This document shows, in pieces, positions 1,436 through 58,640 of a stretch of DNA of 64,000 bases; position 1 is the first letter of the stretch, and each line of letters begins with the position of its first letter. The position numbers were made by a program, and so were the translations under genes. The stretch covers positions 5,860-69,859 of the forward strand of contig CAJJNV010000008.1 in assembly GCA_905193225.1 (NCBI GenBank), read 5' to 3'. The stretch is from an uncultured Oscillospiraceae bacterium. GTDB lineage: Bacteria > Bacillota > Clostridia > Oscillospirales > Acutalibacteraceae. A model generated the notes under the pieces. It was not told the origin of the DNA and did not search any database. It worked only from the letters and a program-made list of their open reading frames with translations.

Positions 1436-1759
1436 ATATTTTTTCCTCCTTCGGTTTTTGATTTAAATACTGATTTTTCTCACAAAAAATATTAACTGCG
1501 CCCCGCTTTTTAAAAGACAGGCAAGGCGGAGTTCTTTATGCTCGGTGTTGCTTTGTTATTGCTTTGGTATTGCTTTGTTTCGCTCGGTATTTGCCTTGTG
1601 TTTTTGCTTTTGGATATTGTGCTGATGATTTAATTGCGATTGAAATTATTATATTTTTTACGGATGTTTTATTGTGCTTGTTGACAGAAAGCTACTGTTT
1701 AACTTGGCTTTTGTCAATACACCGTAGTAACCGATATAGCACCGCCGCGGCTGCAAGGT

Positions 1760-1903
1760 GTGCTGAGGCAAGTCAGCTCTGCTGACCGGAGGGCGGCCGG
1801 CAGCAAGCGCAAAGCAGCAATCGGAAAATGCGGCGTATTTTTTCTTTAAGGCTGCGGTGTTTTGCGCCCTCCGTTCTCGGCAGGGCCGAGAAGGCCTCAG
1901 CAC
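1760..1903. ncRNA. GC-rich structured repeat element, copy A (reverse orientation relative to B and C); candidate novel ncRNA or structured repeat
   Basis: Outer stem GTGCTGAGGC (1760-1769) pairs with GCCTCAGCAC (1894-1903). Sub-hairpin GTCAGC-tct-GCTGAC. Mid stem CGGAGGGCG (1787-1795) pairs with CGCCCTCCG (1865-1873). Sub-hairpin TTCTCGGC-agg-GCCGAGAA. The 69-nt core contains CTGCGGTG and AATCGGAA, which read CACCGCAG and TTCCGATT on the opposite strand. Confidence 0.6.
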
Positions 1904-1935
1904 GCCGGCGGCCGCTTGCCTATAGCATACATTTA

Positions 1936-10323: not shown

Positions 10324-10607
10324 TGCCGACACAGAAAATGCATCGATTGATTGACCGGCTGATTGATTAACCTACTGCCCTTTCAACAAACGATTTATTT
10401 CATTAAATTCAACACCTCTGACAGCGCAAAGCTTTCAGGGGTGTTTTTTGTTGGGCCATTGCCGAGGTGCCATGGTTGTTTGTTTGTATCTTCTGACCTG
10501 CGGCACCTTGCTGCTGTTTTGCGGTGCTTTTTATGCTTCTTTTTTATGCCGGCGTTTTTTGATGCCGTTTCTATACTGCGTGATTGAAAGCTGTGATTTT
10601 GACCTAC

Positions 10608-10748
10608 CGCTGAGGCAGCCTCGGCGCAGCCGAGACCGGAGGGTACGGCATCCCGCAGTCTTACCTACAAACAAGGCTGCACTTAAAAAACTTATATGCT
10701 TTTATCCGAGAGCCTCCCTCCGATCAGCTTGCGCTGATTGCCTCAGCG
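10608..10748. ncRNA. GC-rich structured repeat element, copy B
   Basis: Outer stem CGCTGAGGCA (10608-10617) pairs with TGCCTCAGCG (10739-10748). Sub-hairpin CTCGGC-gca-GCCGAG. Mid stem CGGAGGG pairs with CCCTCCG. Sub-hairpin ATCAGC-ttgc-GCTGAT. Core contains CCCGCAG and TTATCCGAG. Confidence 0.6.
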
Positions 10749-10880
10749 TCCCGCAGCCGTGCACATTAGGTCAGCTGACAACCCTTCGCAGCCTTCTGCC
10801 GCACGCAAATACACAAAACCCTGCCTAATGAAAAGGCCTTAGCATCTGCGCCAAGCCTTTAAGACTTTTATTTAATCTAA

Positions 10881-10930
10881 AAACGCACAAACAGCGTGCA
10901 TCCCATTTTGCGAGATGCACGCCGTTTTTA
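10881..10930. terminator. strong bidirectional rho-independent terminator, with no coding gene immediately upstream
   Basis: AAAAACG...GCGTGCATC-ccattttgcga-GATGCACGC-CGTTTTT. Confidence 0.55.
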
Positions 10931-11078
10931 GCTTAAGCATAATGCCGCTTTTGTATCACTTATATTTATTAAGTTGTATCTGAACATCTGCAAAACAAAA
11001 CCATAAAGTGATATTTTTTTAAATTTTTGAATATATATTTCCGACAAATATTTTCATTGAAAACAAGGCGGTGGAGAT

Positions 11079-13751: not shown

Positions 13752-13898
13752 CGGGCGCCGAGACTTTCCCGGCCTTGCCGGGAACGGGAGGAGCAACACA
13801 CCGCAGTTTTCGGGAAAACGACACGCTATATTATCCGATTACCGCTTCGCATCAGCAGCCTTTCCTCCCGGTCAGCTGACGCTGACAGTCTCGGCACC
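13752..13898. ncRNA. GC-rich structured repeat element, copy C
   Basis: Outer stem GGGCGCCGAGACT pairs with AGTCTCGGCACCC (one mismatch). Sub-hairpin TTCCCGGC-ctt-GCCGGGAA. Mid stem CGGGAGG pairs with CCTCCCG. Sub-hairpin GTCAGC-tgac-GCTGAC. Core contains CACACCGCAG, TTATCCGATT and GCTTCGCATCAGCAGCC, shared with copy A in reverse complement. Confidence 0.6.
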
Positions 13899-14018
13899 CT
13901 TGCTTTAACGAAAGCCATAAAGCGCACATCTGCCTTCGGCCTGATAAGCATCACACCACACGTCCGATTGCGCACCTCCCGAGCCAAAAAAGCATTGCAA
14001 AAGTACAAAAGTATTTTA

Positions 14019-14165
14019 TCACAATCTATCGGCTTTGTAAACATCAAAAAACCATTCACCGCCTATCCGTCCCGCAGCAGCCCCGCTGTAAACCGCAGCA
14101 AAGGCCACACCTCCAGCCGCAATAAACGCCGCGCCGACAATCGCCGCACATAACCCGGCTTTCAT
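14019..14165 (-). CDS. possible small hydrophobic peptide (48 aa, Gly/Ala-rich TM helix)
   Basis: Hand translation: MKAGLCAAIVGAAFIAAGGVAFAAVYSGAAAGRIGGEWFFDVYKADRL. Preceded by GGAAGGTG RBS. Below the length cutoff of the ORF track. Confidence 0.25.
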   Translation of the reverse strand: MKAGLCAAIVGAAFIAAGGVAFAAVYSGAAAGRIGGEWFFDVYKADRL

Positions 14166-30576: not shown

Positions 30577-30636
30577 ATATCTTAAAATACATCTTAAAAC
30601 GCATCTTAGAACGCATCTTAGAACGCATCTTAGAAC
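30577..30636. repeat. 12-bp tandem repeat, about 5 copies (RCATCTTARAAY), in the ftsL-pbp intergenic region
   Basis: acatcttaaaac / gcatcttagaac x3, preceded by the degenerate copy atatcttaaaat. Confidence 0.8.
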
Positions 30637-31085
30637 AAATCAGCAATCTTTTCAAAGATGTTTTTATTATCCTCGGCCACTTCAACCGAATCCTCATCGC
30701 AGATGTTGATGTAGCCGGTCTGCACACCGGTGGCCTTTTGCATTTCCTTTTCCTTTGCGACGTTTTCGATGTTGTTAAAGGAAACGATGGAGCTAAGTTC
30801 AACATTAAGGCGGCTTTCCTCCTGTTTAAGGGCGGTTATCTGCTCATTTGCGGCATTGATCTGTGCACAGACCTCGGAATTTTTGATCTGTCCGTGGATT
30901 TGTATAACAATGAGGGTCAAAACGATGGTCGCCACCGCACCGATTTTAAGCTTGGCCTTAAGACCGGCATTATGAGAACTTCTGTGACGATTGCGATTTT
31001 CGGGCAAACGAATAACCTTTGCCTCGTTCTTTTTGGGAGCAAATTTTTCAAAATCGTATGCTGCGTTGTCATAAAATCTATTCAC
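30630..31085 (-). CDS. ftsL: FtsL-like bitopic cell-division protein
   Basis: Single TM IGAVATIVLTLIVIQI then coiled coil. Lies between rsmH and pbp as in dcw clusters. Confidence 0.5.
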   Translation of the reverse strand: MNRFYDNAAYDFEKFAPKKNEAKVIRLPENRNRHRSSHNAGLKAKLKIGAVATIVLTLIVIQIHGQIKNSEVCAQINAANEQITALKQEESRLNVELSSIVSFNNIENVAKEKEMQKATGVQTGYINICDEDSVEVAEDNKNIFEKIADLF

Positions 31086-44035: not shown

Positions 44036-44088
44036 CATTAACCGTTAAACCTCGTTAACCGTTAAACCTCGTTAACCGTTAAACCTCG
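44036..44088. repeat. 17-bp tandem repeat x3 (TTAACCGTTAAACCTCG)
   Basis: Three perfect contiguous copies, preceded by a TCACTGAGC x2 motif. Confidence 0.85.
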
Positions 44089-44106
44089 TTCGCCGATTCT
44101 TAGACA

Positions 44107-50309: not shown

Positions 50310-52202
50310 ATGAACGATCCCTTTGTACACAAGCCGGTTTCCGGATCGGCACAGGACGAGACCTGCCCGCAGGACAGCACCGCTGAGCAAAACAATACCG
50401 CTGCTCAAAACAATACCGCTGCTCAAAACAATACCGCTGCTCAAAGCAACACTACCGTGCAAGACACCACCGCCACACAAAACATTACTGTCGCACGAAA
50501 CAATGCCATCCGGCAAGGCACTTCCGTCACGCAAAGCATCTCAGATAGCAGCAAAAGCACTGCAGCTAAATCTCCAAATAATCGTTCCTTTTACGGCGAC
50601 GTGCTGAACACTGCGGGAAGTATTTTCTTTGCTGCAATGGCGGGATTTTTCCCCCTTTTCTGCGGCGGAAGCTATAACATAATTCTTGATTCAAAATATG
50701 CTGCCTTTGAAACCATAACAATTTTTTCGGCGGTATTTTTCGTTTTTTTCTGCCTTCTTAAAAATGTTTCCATCCGCCGCTCTAAACCGTCGATCACTTT
50801 AACGGATCGAACAAAAGCCTCCTTTAAATCTGCCGTTCTGACGCTCGTCAAAACGGCCGACGTCACGGTTATTCTGCTTATATGCTTCTGCCTTTTGACG
50901 CTTCTTTCAGCCGTCCTTTCACCCTATGCCTTTTCCCTTAATTCGGCGGGAAAAAGCGCGGTGATTTTCGGATCGGGGCGATATGACGGGCTGTATGTTT
51001 TAGCCCTTTACGTCGCGGTTTTTGCCCTTTCATATTTTTTCGTAAAGTTTGATTATAAATGCGTTTTGCTGGTTGGTGCGGTCACCCTTATTATGTCGAT
51101 CATCGGCATACTTCAGCTTTTCGGCATAAACGCCTTCGGCCTCTACCCGGCTGACATTTACACCGGTTATTACGCCGAGTTCATTTCCACCATGGGCAAC
51201 ATTGATTTTATGTCGGCGCTCATGTCTATGTTTTTGCCTCTTGTCTTCGGCTGCTTTTTGTCGGCGGACGGGAGCAGAAAAAGCGAGGCTTTTCTACTGA
51301 TTTGTTTCTTTGTCGGCGGATTCTGCCTTATAAAAACCGATGTCCAGTCGGGTATGATTGCCCTTCTTGTAACGGCGGCGCTGACCCTTCCCCTCTCTTT
51401 AAAAAGCAAAAGAAGTCTTGCCAAAGCCCTTGTATTTTTGCAAACGTCGACGGTGCTCATATGGCTTTGCAACTGCTTTGATCTTTCTAAGGGAGAGGGC
51501 ACGACGGTTGTGCAATTTTGCATAAACGCAAAGCTGACGATTGCCGCAGCCGCAGTGATTTTCCTGCTTTTAGCCTTGCTGATTCTGCAAAGGAAAAAAG
51601 GACTTTCAAAAAAAGTCCTGTCAAAACTCCCCTGCGCCCTATTTATTTTTGAAGGAGCGGCCCTTTTGCTCCTTGCCGCATATATGTATTTCCTTTTCAC
51701 CCCCGCCGACAAAGACAACGCCTTAAACCAGCTTTACGCCCTGCTTCACGGAAGCCTTTCCCAAAGCTCGGGCTCGGGCAGGGGCGGCATTTGGAAATAC
51801 AGCTTTTTAATGGGTCTTGAGCGCCCCGTTTTAGGCCATGGGCAGGGATGCTATAAGCTTGCCATGGACGATTTTTCCGCAAGGGTAGGTTACACATACT
51901 ACACATCAAGAAACGCCTCTCTCGACGCCGCACACAACGAATTTTTGCAGCTTTTCTGCACCGGCGGTATTTTAGGCCTTTTAAGCTATGCGGGAGCTCT
52001 CGCCTCCCTTATTGCAAGGAGTATAAAAAGGCGATTTAGCGGAAAATACACCGTTTGCCTGCTTTCGGCGGTTGTCGGCTATCTTGTCCAAAGCTTTTTC
52101 ACCTTTTCCATCGTCGAGGTGGCTCCCGTATTCTTTATGCTTTGCGGAATTCTTTTGCATAATGTGCGGGACGCCGAAAAGGTTTCCTCACCGGAAAAAT
52201 AA
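50310..52202 (+). CDS. O-antigen ligase/polymerase-domain (Wzy_C) polytopic membrane protein with N-terminal low-complexity repeat
   Basis: About 12 TM. Motif SGSGRGGIWKYSFLMGLERPVLGHGQG matches the Wzy_C loop. N-terminus carries a TAAQNN x3 repeat encoded by an 18-bp tandem DNA repeat. Confidence 0.6.
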   Translation: MNDPFVHKPVSGSAQDETCPQDSTAEQNNTAAQNNTAAQNNTAAQSNTTVQDTTATQNITVARNNAIRQGTSVTQSISDSSKSTAAKSPNNRSFYGDVLNTAGSIFFAAMAGFFPLFCGGSYNIILDSKYAAFETITIFSAVFFVFFCLLKNVSIRRSKPSITLTDRTKASFKSAVLTLVKTADVTVILLICFCLLTLLSAVLSPYAFSLNSAGKSAVIFGSGRYDGLYVLALYVAVFALSYFFVKFDYKCVLLVGAVTLIMSIIGILQLFGINAFGLYPADIYTGYYAEFISTMGNIDFMSALMSMFLPLVFGCFLSADGSRKSEAFLLICFFVGGFCLIKTDVQSGMIALLVTAALTLPLSLKSKRSLAKALVFLQTSTVLIWLCNCFDLSKGEGTTVVQFCINAKLTIAAAAVIFLLLALLILQRKKGLSKKVLSKLPCALFIFEGAALLLLAAYMYFLFTPADKDNALNQLYALLHGSLSQSSGSGRGGIWKYSFLMGLERPVLGHGQGCYKLAMDDFSARVGYTYYTSRNASLDAAHNEFLQLFCTGGILGLLSYAGALASLIARSIKRRFSGKYTVCLLSAVVGYLVQSFFTFSIVEVAPVFFMLCGILLHNVRDAEKVSSPEK

Positions 52203-58547: not shown

Positions 58548-58640
58548 AGCCCAGCCGCGCAACGGACGATTTGACCTAAGCCCAGCCGCGCAACGGACGA
58601 TTTGACCTAAGCCCAGCCGCGCAACGGACAAGTTGGCCGA
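58548..58640. repeat. 32-bp tandem repeat, about 2.6 copies (AGCCCAGCCGCGCAACGGACGATTTGACCTAA), about 100 bp upstream of the amidase gene
   Basis: Two perfect copies plus a diverging third. Confidence 0.8.

Follow-up and report, generated by a model that had tools for sequence, protein, structure and literature searches.

Three intergenic loci in a 64-kbp stretch of DNA from an uncultured Oscillospiraceae bacterium (hereafter the window, at its full 64,000 nucleotides) carry GC-rich elements of about 145 nt, raising the question of whether they represent a novel non-coding RNA or a structured repeat. The nested architecture that a first-pass annotation had assigned to all three was borne out, with the stems at the positions given there and a common fold at z-scores of about -6. 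The folds of copies A, B and C have energies of -65 to -82 kcal/mol (z -5.7 to -6.5; copy A, -70.3 kcal/mol, z -6.09), all 200 dinucleotide shuffles fold less well, and folding places all three copies in a four-way junction on either strand. Copy A had been described as inverted relative to B and C; its reverse complement does align to both at a mean column identity of 77%, including the core motifs quoted at that stage. A covariance model derived from these copies identifies all three as the sole family matches in the window, where the next, unrelated match scores 11 bits (E=0.6), and a model from 22 copies (R2) recovers the same three copies only. A search of the window for solo fragments of the element found none, and a generic repeat finder missed the family because its copies are too diverged. 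Positions of all features are collected in Table 1.

Table 1. Positions of elements, their parts and nearby features (window coordinates unless another stretch, with an L number, is named).
Feature	Position	Strand	Basis or remarks
Copy A, full conserved element	1758..1906	-	covariance model 150 bits; 136.7 bits with the 22-copy model R2
Copy A, 3' tail (minus strand = ACCTTGCAGCCGCGGCGGTG)	1740..1759	-	anchored alignments of right flanks
Copy A, P1 arm GTGCTGAGGC (plus-strand letters)	1760..1769	-	pairs with 1894-1903; sequence, fold
Copy A, hairpin P4, GTCAGC-tct-GCTGAC	1772..1786	-	sequence, parse
Copy A, P3 arm CGGAGGGCG (plus-strand letters)	1787..1795	-	pairs with 1865-1873; sequence, fold
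Copy A, variable core	1796..1864	-	73 nt between 7-bp P3 arms; G-poor on the family strand
Copy A, P3 second arm CGCCCTCCG (plus-strand letters)	1865..1873	-	sequence
Copy A, hairpin P2, TTCTCGGC-agg-GCCGAGAA	1874..1892	-	sequence, parse
Copy A, P1 second arm GCCTCAGCAC (plus-strand letters)	1894..1903	-	sequence, fold
Copy B, full element	10604..10751	+	covariance model 145 bits; fold z -5.7
Copy B, helices P1; P2; P3; P4	10608-10617/10739-10748; 10618-10636; 10637-10643/10716-10722; 10723-10738	+	
Copy B, core	10644-10715	+	
Copy B, 3' tail TCCCGCAGCCGTGCAC	10749..10764	+	conserved
Copy C, full element	13752..13899	+	covariance model 147.6 bits
Copy C, helices P1; P2; P4	13757-13765/13887-13895; 13766-13784; 13871-13886	+	
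Copy C, P3, CGGGAGG/CCTCCCG	13785-13791/13864-13870	+	
Copy C, core	13792-13863	+	
P3 arms with Shine-Dalgarno-like/anti-Shine-Dalgarno-like motifs, copies A; B; C	1787-1793/1867-1873; 10637-10643/10716-10722; 13785-13791/13864-13870		
Sigma-70-like promoter	14041..14013	-	TTTACA, 17 nt, TG-TAAAAT; 10/12 matches
Degenerate 11-nt tandem repeats beside copy A	992-1037; 1544-1619		types TTGCTTTGTTA and TTTGCTGAAAGTG
Strain-specific insertion near copy B	L003:3214-4684 vs window 10928-10997		1.47 kb
12-nt tandem repeat, x5	30579-30638		
Dockerin protein, 1500 aa	33164..37666	-	internal repeats
17-nt tandem repeat, x3	44038-44095		
18-nt tandem repeat, x7	50374-50499		start of Wzy_C/O-antigen-ligase-like gene
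31-nt tandem repeat, x3	58548-58640		
Intact copy in L128	L128:4354-4503		
Decayed, 3'-truncated copy in L128	L128:6751-6891		
Full copies followed by a solo 3'-end fragment	L125:2515-2665; L127:383-530		
Inverted copies around a comM-like gene	L022:2198-2345; L022:4174-4323		
FMN riboswitch	L113:308-479		102.8 bits

In all 22 intact copies that were parsed, helices P1 to P4 abut in a four-way junction without a single unpaired base. The outer stem P1 pairs GC[T/C]GAGGC and one further pair with GCCTC[A/G]GC; P2 is an 8-bp hairpin (NTCTCGGC, a 3-nt loop, GCCGAGAN); the mid stem P3 (CGGAGGG/CCCTCCG) closes the core; and P4 is a 6-bp hairpin ([A/G]TCAGC, a loop of 3-5 nt, GCTGA[T/C]). The core measures 72-77 nt in 21 of the 22 copies, the outlier being 90 nt, and is poor in G on the family strand (C 455, A 452, T 432 and G 298, summed over the 22 cores). 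It is no more structured than shuffled sequence on either strand, in agreement with the single-stranded core proposed earlier. The stems were as first described, whereas the outer stem proved not to be the limit of the element: a conserved 3' tail of ~15-20 nt, YCCC(G)CAGCCGTGC, follows P1, and in one subfamily (subfamily i) this tail and a degenerate left arm pair with each other, and the copies stay similar for ~40-55 nt further on both sides. The tail is unpaired in the other subfamily. Each copy is an imperfect palindrome with a conserved center of ~150 nt, which the 3' tail and the degenerate outer arms extend to ~190-260 nt. As a separate observation, both P3 variants (CGGAGGG/CCCTCCG and CGGGAGG/CCTCCCG) place a Shine-Dalgarno-like GGAGG in one arm and an anti-Shine-Dalgarno-like CCTCC in the other; in window copies A, B and C, no start codon stands at a suitable spacing after the GGAGG.

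The first-pass annotation had proposed a search for the element in related genomes with a covariance model, and at least 22 distinct intact copies and one truncated copy, scoring 62-150 bits, are now known from three related genomes/metagenomes: those of the window species, of a sister MAG (CAKSDF01, ~90-92% nucleotide identity) and of a third MAG (CAKSPR01). A degenerate pattern scan of a genome collection, confirmed with the model, yielded nine copies on eight contigs of CAKSDF01 and one copy in CAKSPR01 among the matches listed; both are Hadza-gut MAGs labeled ‘uncultured Eubacteriales’, and they are the only genomes with true copies among those matches. This pattern is loose and draws chance matches from high-GC genomes (10 of 114 stretches among the matches listed were true), so that the family may well range more widely and have more copies than counted here. 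In a metagenome collection, a stricter pattern returned 11 stretches with 13 copies, ten of the stretches coming from ERZ857629, whose contigs are ~98.7% identical to the window, and one from ERZ827492. B and C recur in metagenome contigs of the same species at ~98% identity to the window, and A is likewise present in same-species contigs; copy B was found in L001, L004 and L130, and each of the six same-species contigs contains copy C, as does the orthologous site of CAKSDF01 (L080). The strict pattern recovers ~12-13 intact copies per genome, and from this pattern-limited recovery we estimate roughly 15-25, far fewer than in classical REP families.

No true copy was found in the viral collection or among phage and plasmid records. 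Rfam 15 at gathering thresholds returned no match in the window and none on the elements in L113, L121 and L128, and at E<=10 copy A drew chance-level matches only, so the annotation's failure to match the element to a known riboswitch or RNA family is upheld by that database. The element-bearing CAKSPR01 contig L113 does contain an FMN riboswitch, which is unrelated to the element. The literature searched holds no description of such an element; the family is uncatalogued, and it could not be assigned to a named one.

Pairing is retained through sequence change. In the 22-copy alignment, 88% of paired cells are complementary against 33-49% with slid partners, 22 pairs have changed on both sides against 1-8 in the slid controls, and none of 500 shuffles reaches the observed covariation score; in this respect the earlier statement that the stems differ between copies and stay complementary is supported. 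Compensatory changes fall in all four helices, among them T-A to C-G in P1, G-C to C-G in P1 of L128, an A/G swap in copy C's P3, and a junction-proximal pair of P2 that occurs as three pair types. The same annotation had taken this pattern to indicate selection on secondary structure rather than on primary sequence, a conclusion that, in those words, the larger alignment does not support: the stems are the most sequence-conserved part of the element (P2 CTCGGC in 20/22, P3 CGGAGGG in 20/22, P4 TCAGC in 22/22), and it is the loops and the core that vary. Four copies occupy orthologous sites in the window species and CAKSDF01, and over these pairs substitutions per site amount to 5.5% in stems, 12.5% in the tail, 14% in hairpin loops, 17.5% in flanks and 20% in the core. 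Purifying selection thus acts on the arms in situ and preserves both their sequence and their pairing. The core drifts neutrally with its length kept, and the arms change at about one third of the neutral rate. Because selection on the stems is this strong, the copies are not junk, and a host function, including one at the level of RNA, is possible. Cores of paralogous copies align poorly, with few conserved columns, which suggests that the copies arose before the two species separated.

The elements could be a structured RNA family, either small RNA genes or cis-acting modules of neighboring transcripts, in which the four-way junction is the functional form, for instance by blocking nucleases, marking a site of processing or serving as a scaffold for protein binding, with the GGAGG/CCTCC of P3 or the tail as active motif. 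A fold this stable and so well above shuffles, compensatory changes in every helix, stems under purifying selection in situ and a 3' tail conserved where it is unpaired all speak for such an RNA. Strand signals do not bear it out. Conserved stem sequence with variable loops and junction-distal parts is the reverse of what is seen in known structured RNAs, and in well-registered stems G.U mismatches number 5 against 11 for A.C, so that, with G.U not enriched over A.C, no RNA strand is marked. Folding energy is lower on the reverse strand in 20 of 22 copies, which would favor an RNA on that strand; we rejected this as a sign of the transcribed strand, since the asymmetry is a composition effect of the scarcity of G in the core of the family strand. 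A terminator-like hairpin with a T run within the core was also considered and rejected, being weak, inconsistent between copies and in a core no more structured than shuffles.

Genomic context likewise argues against an RNA gene or leader. Neighbors are unrelated housekeeping genes at varying distances, including an APH-like kinase, 2Fe-2S proteins, CE2 and SASA esterases with dockerins, DUF4830, rimM-trmD, comM-like, metA, purA, RNase H, ilvD, aroA, penicillin-binding proteins, mini-RNase III, DegV and TauE, and the window itself contains the dcw cell-division cluster and other housekeeping genes. Independent copies run in the same direction as the upstream gene in 12 cases and in the opposite direction in six, and with unrelated neighbors and variable distances this departs from what a riboswitch or leader would show. 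Neither a promoter nor a terminator was found to be conserved alongside the elements, several copies lie past an intrinsic-terminator-like hairpin that follows the upstream gene, and within the elements no terminator-like site was called, P1 being followed by the C-rich tail and not by T residues. Truncated and partial copies and the absence of an Rfam match point the same way. In favor of an RNA role, copy C, antisense to its flanking genes, probably sits in the rimM-trmD leader. A sigma-70-like promoter on the minus strand (Table 1) would give rimM-trmD a leader of ~490 nt containing copy C reversed. Weighing both sides, we regard a structured RNA family as possible but unlikely. Of the two options in the earlier phrase ‘novel ncRNA or structured repeat’, the second fits better, whereas mixed orientations, the lack of wobble bias and decayed copies tell against the first.

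Since no RNA strand signal is present, the element might instead be read as double-stranded DNA, that is, as a cluster of sites for protein binding, a recombination site, or a small invertible, phase-variable segment between inverted arms. P2 and P4 would then be palindromic operators whose phasing is set by the ~73-bp core, equivalent to seven helical turns; the arms are indeed sequence-conserved short palindromes, and the core keeps to 72-77 bp in nearly every copy though its sequence drifts. However, arms separated by 72-130 nt carry compensatory changes, evidence that they genuinely pair within one strand, and inversion finds no support in the data: no inverted core was seen, the core being collinear in every same-species contig and in the four orthologous pairs. 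A segment of 72-130 bp is also very short, in terms of DNA looping, for recombinase-mediated inversion, and neither the surroundings of the copies nor the 43 window ORFs scanned revealed a transposase or recombinase. We consider a double-stranded site cluster very improbable.

Two L022 copies of CAKSDF01 bracket a comM-like (Mg-chelatase/ComM) gene in inverted orientation. It is the only gene found to be so flanked, probably by coincidence.

The distribution of the copies records duplication and decay. Each of the two subfamilies has extended arms in common among its members. In L128 a decayed, 3'-truncated copy lies 2.3 kb from its intact closest relative, and both have the rare P1 variant GCTCAGGC and the left flank GGACGCCGGAA, which suggests local duplication. 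A solo 3'-end fragment, GAT[A/G]GCCTYRGCGCCC, lies ~45 nt downstream of full copies in both L125 and L127, and from its presence beside both paralogues it follows that the copied unit in this sub-lineage had a second 3' end. Copies also cluster: stretches of 3-12 kb in the window, L022, L124 and L128 contain two or three each. Copy A is missing at the orthologous spacer of relatives with 72-82% protein identity, where this spacer is 89-266 nt long as against 500 nt in the window; these spacers are too diverged to define the edges of the element. The only present/absent site lies between two CE2 genes, where CAKSDF01 has a copy and the window none, and the difference there is a replacement of 382 nt versus 63 nt, not a clean insertion. 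Beside copy A, the spacers are filled by degenerate 11-nt tandem repeats of two types. In the relatives L134 and L135 the counterparts of the genes around these spacers abut or lie ~90 nt apart, so the spacers have expanded in the window lineage.

A small, non-coding, intergenic element with inverted terminal arms, multiple dispersed copies, subfamilies and one site that differs between sister species recalls a conventional MITE, a deletion derivative of an IS with a DDE transposase, mobilized in trans through terminal inverted repeats, with movement recent or ongoing. In 22 copies no direct repeat marks a target-site duplication at the edges of conservation, and no sharp common terminus was found, similarity between copies fading gradually although inverted arms are present (P1, and the outer arms in subfamily i). 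The copies are old, as the poorly aligning cores attest, and there are no near-identical paralogues among those recovered. They are also fixed among strains. The first-pass annotation had raised variation in copy number between strains as a sign of mobility; none was seen, A, B and C being present in every same-species contig retrieved, with differences only between species. In one strain of the window species (L003), a 1.47-kb insertion with a 398-aa dockerin-domain gene lies to the right of copy B, ~180 nt away. Moreover, the internal hairpins and the distant P3 arms covary, and recognition of terminal repeats would need neither. A weak examination turned up no match to a known IS or MITE family with terminal repeats, the finding that the annotation had named as counting against its proposal. 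No autonomous partner or transposase was found in ~280 kb of these genomes, itself a weak test, and tblastn with RayT and IS200 TnpA sequences, a weak and incomplete probe for a Y1 transposase, gave nothing in 282 kb. A conventional MITE is, in our assessment, improbable.

The reading that we favor, with moderate confidence, is that the family is a clade-restricted, interspersed, non-coding palindromic repeat of the REP, BIME, ERIC, BOX, Correia or decayed-MITE kind, old and mostly immobile, whose folded arms are constrained by a factor acting in trans. A single strand of a copy would fold into the perfect four-way junction of P1, the hairpin P2, P3 closing the ~72-nt unstructured core, and the hairpin P4; that strand could be RNA produced by read-through from neighboring genes or DNA exposed during replication. 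The family would have spread by copying, giving rise to subfamilies, neighboring duplicates and truncated copies, and would by now be old and largely immobile, fixed among strains and at orthologous sites common to two species. Because the arms stay paired and nearly identical while loops and core drift, a sequence-specific reader acting in trans is the likely source of constraint, and it would read the arms in their folded form. Candidates are a hairpin-recognizing HUH/Y1 enzyme, comparable to those of REP-RAYT and IS200/IS605 systems, or an RNA-binding or RNA-processing protein. The copies may also affect neighboring transcripts.

Known repeat systems offer partial parallels. REP and BIME repeats and REPINs are mobilized or maintained by RAYT, a Y1 HUH transposase, and the association of REPINs with RAYT is established mainly in Proteobacteria. 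Like these, the present elements are intergenic and non-coding, have conserved stems and variable loops, consist of two inverted hairpin-bearing halves around a spacer, persist for long periods at fixed sites and include mosaic and partial copies; recognition as a folded single strand would be a further likeness, here only suggested. They differ in that REP units measure 20-40 nt and occur in hundreds of copies, whereas these measure ~150 nt at the few copies per genome estimated above; in that their halves carry different hairpins (CTCGGC versus TCAGC) and form a four-way junction, not one long hairpin; and in that the weak tblastn search found no RAYT gene. ERIC/IRU elements of Enterobacteria and Correia/NEMIS elements of Neisseria are likewise clade-restricted, intergenic imperfect palindromes of 100-160 nt, often transcribed and in either orientation, with a stable RNA fold able to alter mRNA processing or stability, but those are single long hairpins without sequence similarity to the present family, and Correia elements are numerous and have 26-bp terminal repeats and a TA duplication, whereas the present copies showed no duplication. 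BOX elements of Streptococcus pneumoniae are modular structured repeats of a Gram-positive host with predicted complex stem-loops, mosaic or partial copies and no known transposase; they are built from boxA, boxB and boxC modules with a variable number of boxB, have no fixed-arm four-way junction, and are unrelated in sequence.

Elements recognized as folded single-stranded DNA provide two further comparisons. PATEs derived from IS200/IS605 are short and non-autonomous with a subterminal hairpin near each end, and an element of this type would need neither terminal inverted repeats nor a target duplication, which would explain why none were found. The end hairpins of a PATE, however, resemble each other and the parent IS, and there is no pairing between the ends equivalent to P1 and P3; here no TnpA or TnpB gene and no conserved cleavage tetranucleotide could be identified. 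Integron attC sites also fold as a single strand with paired outer and inner boxes and a variable central part. They have RYYYAAC/GTTRRRY core sites, extrahelical bases and same-orientation arrays by intI, whereas the present outer boxes read GCYGAGGC/GCCTCRGC, the copies are dispersed in both orientations and the window holds no integrase. By analogy, the family may work in the manner of a REP/REPIN- or PATE-type element.

A more specific proposal, which we put forward tentatively and think doubtful, is that the elements form the cis half of an undescribed two-part system of Clostridia, in which a dedicated protein reads the sequence-defined and perfectly stacked four-way junction, and the G-poor 72-nt loop of fixed length and the conserved tail are functional. 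The reader could be a domesticated HUH/Y1 enzyme, another structure-specific enzyme, or an RNA-binding or RNA-processing factor, and the junction could form in single-stranded DNA or in RNA. If true, this would amount to a REPIN-RAYT-like partnership or to a new class of structured RNA.

The elements form a real and well-defined family, unusual in its perfect four-way junction, its sequence-locked arms and its neutral spacer of fixed length. It adds a structured repeat family from poorly studied, uncultured, fiber-degrading gut Clostridia whose genes carry dockerin domains, and it accounts for several unusually long intergenic spacers in the window genome. Unless the family is known as a repeat, it will yield false ‘novel ncRNA’ calls in covariation screens. 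The pattern of constraint points to a four-way-junction reader acting in trans, and its discovery would extend REP/RAYT-type partnerships or structured-RNA biology to this group.

Repetition of other kinds also occurs in the window. Short tandem repeats with units of 12, 17, 18 and 31 nt lie at four further sites, the 18-nt repeat at the start of a Wzy_C/O-antigen-ligase-like gene. A 1500-aa dockerin protein encoded on the minus strand has internal repeats of ~714 nt as well as shorter ones, and no other Pfam domain.
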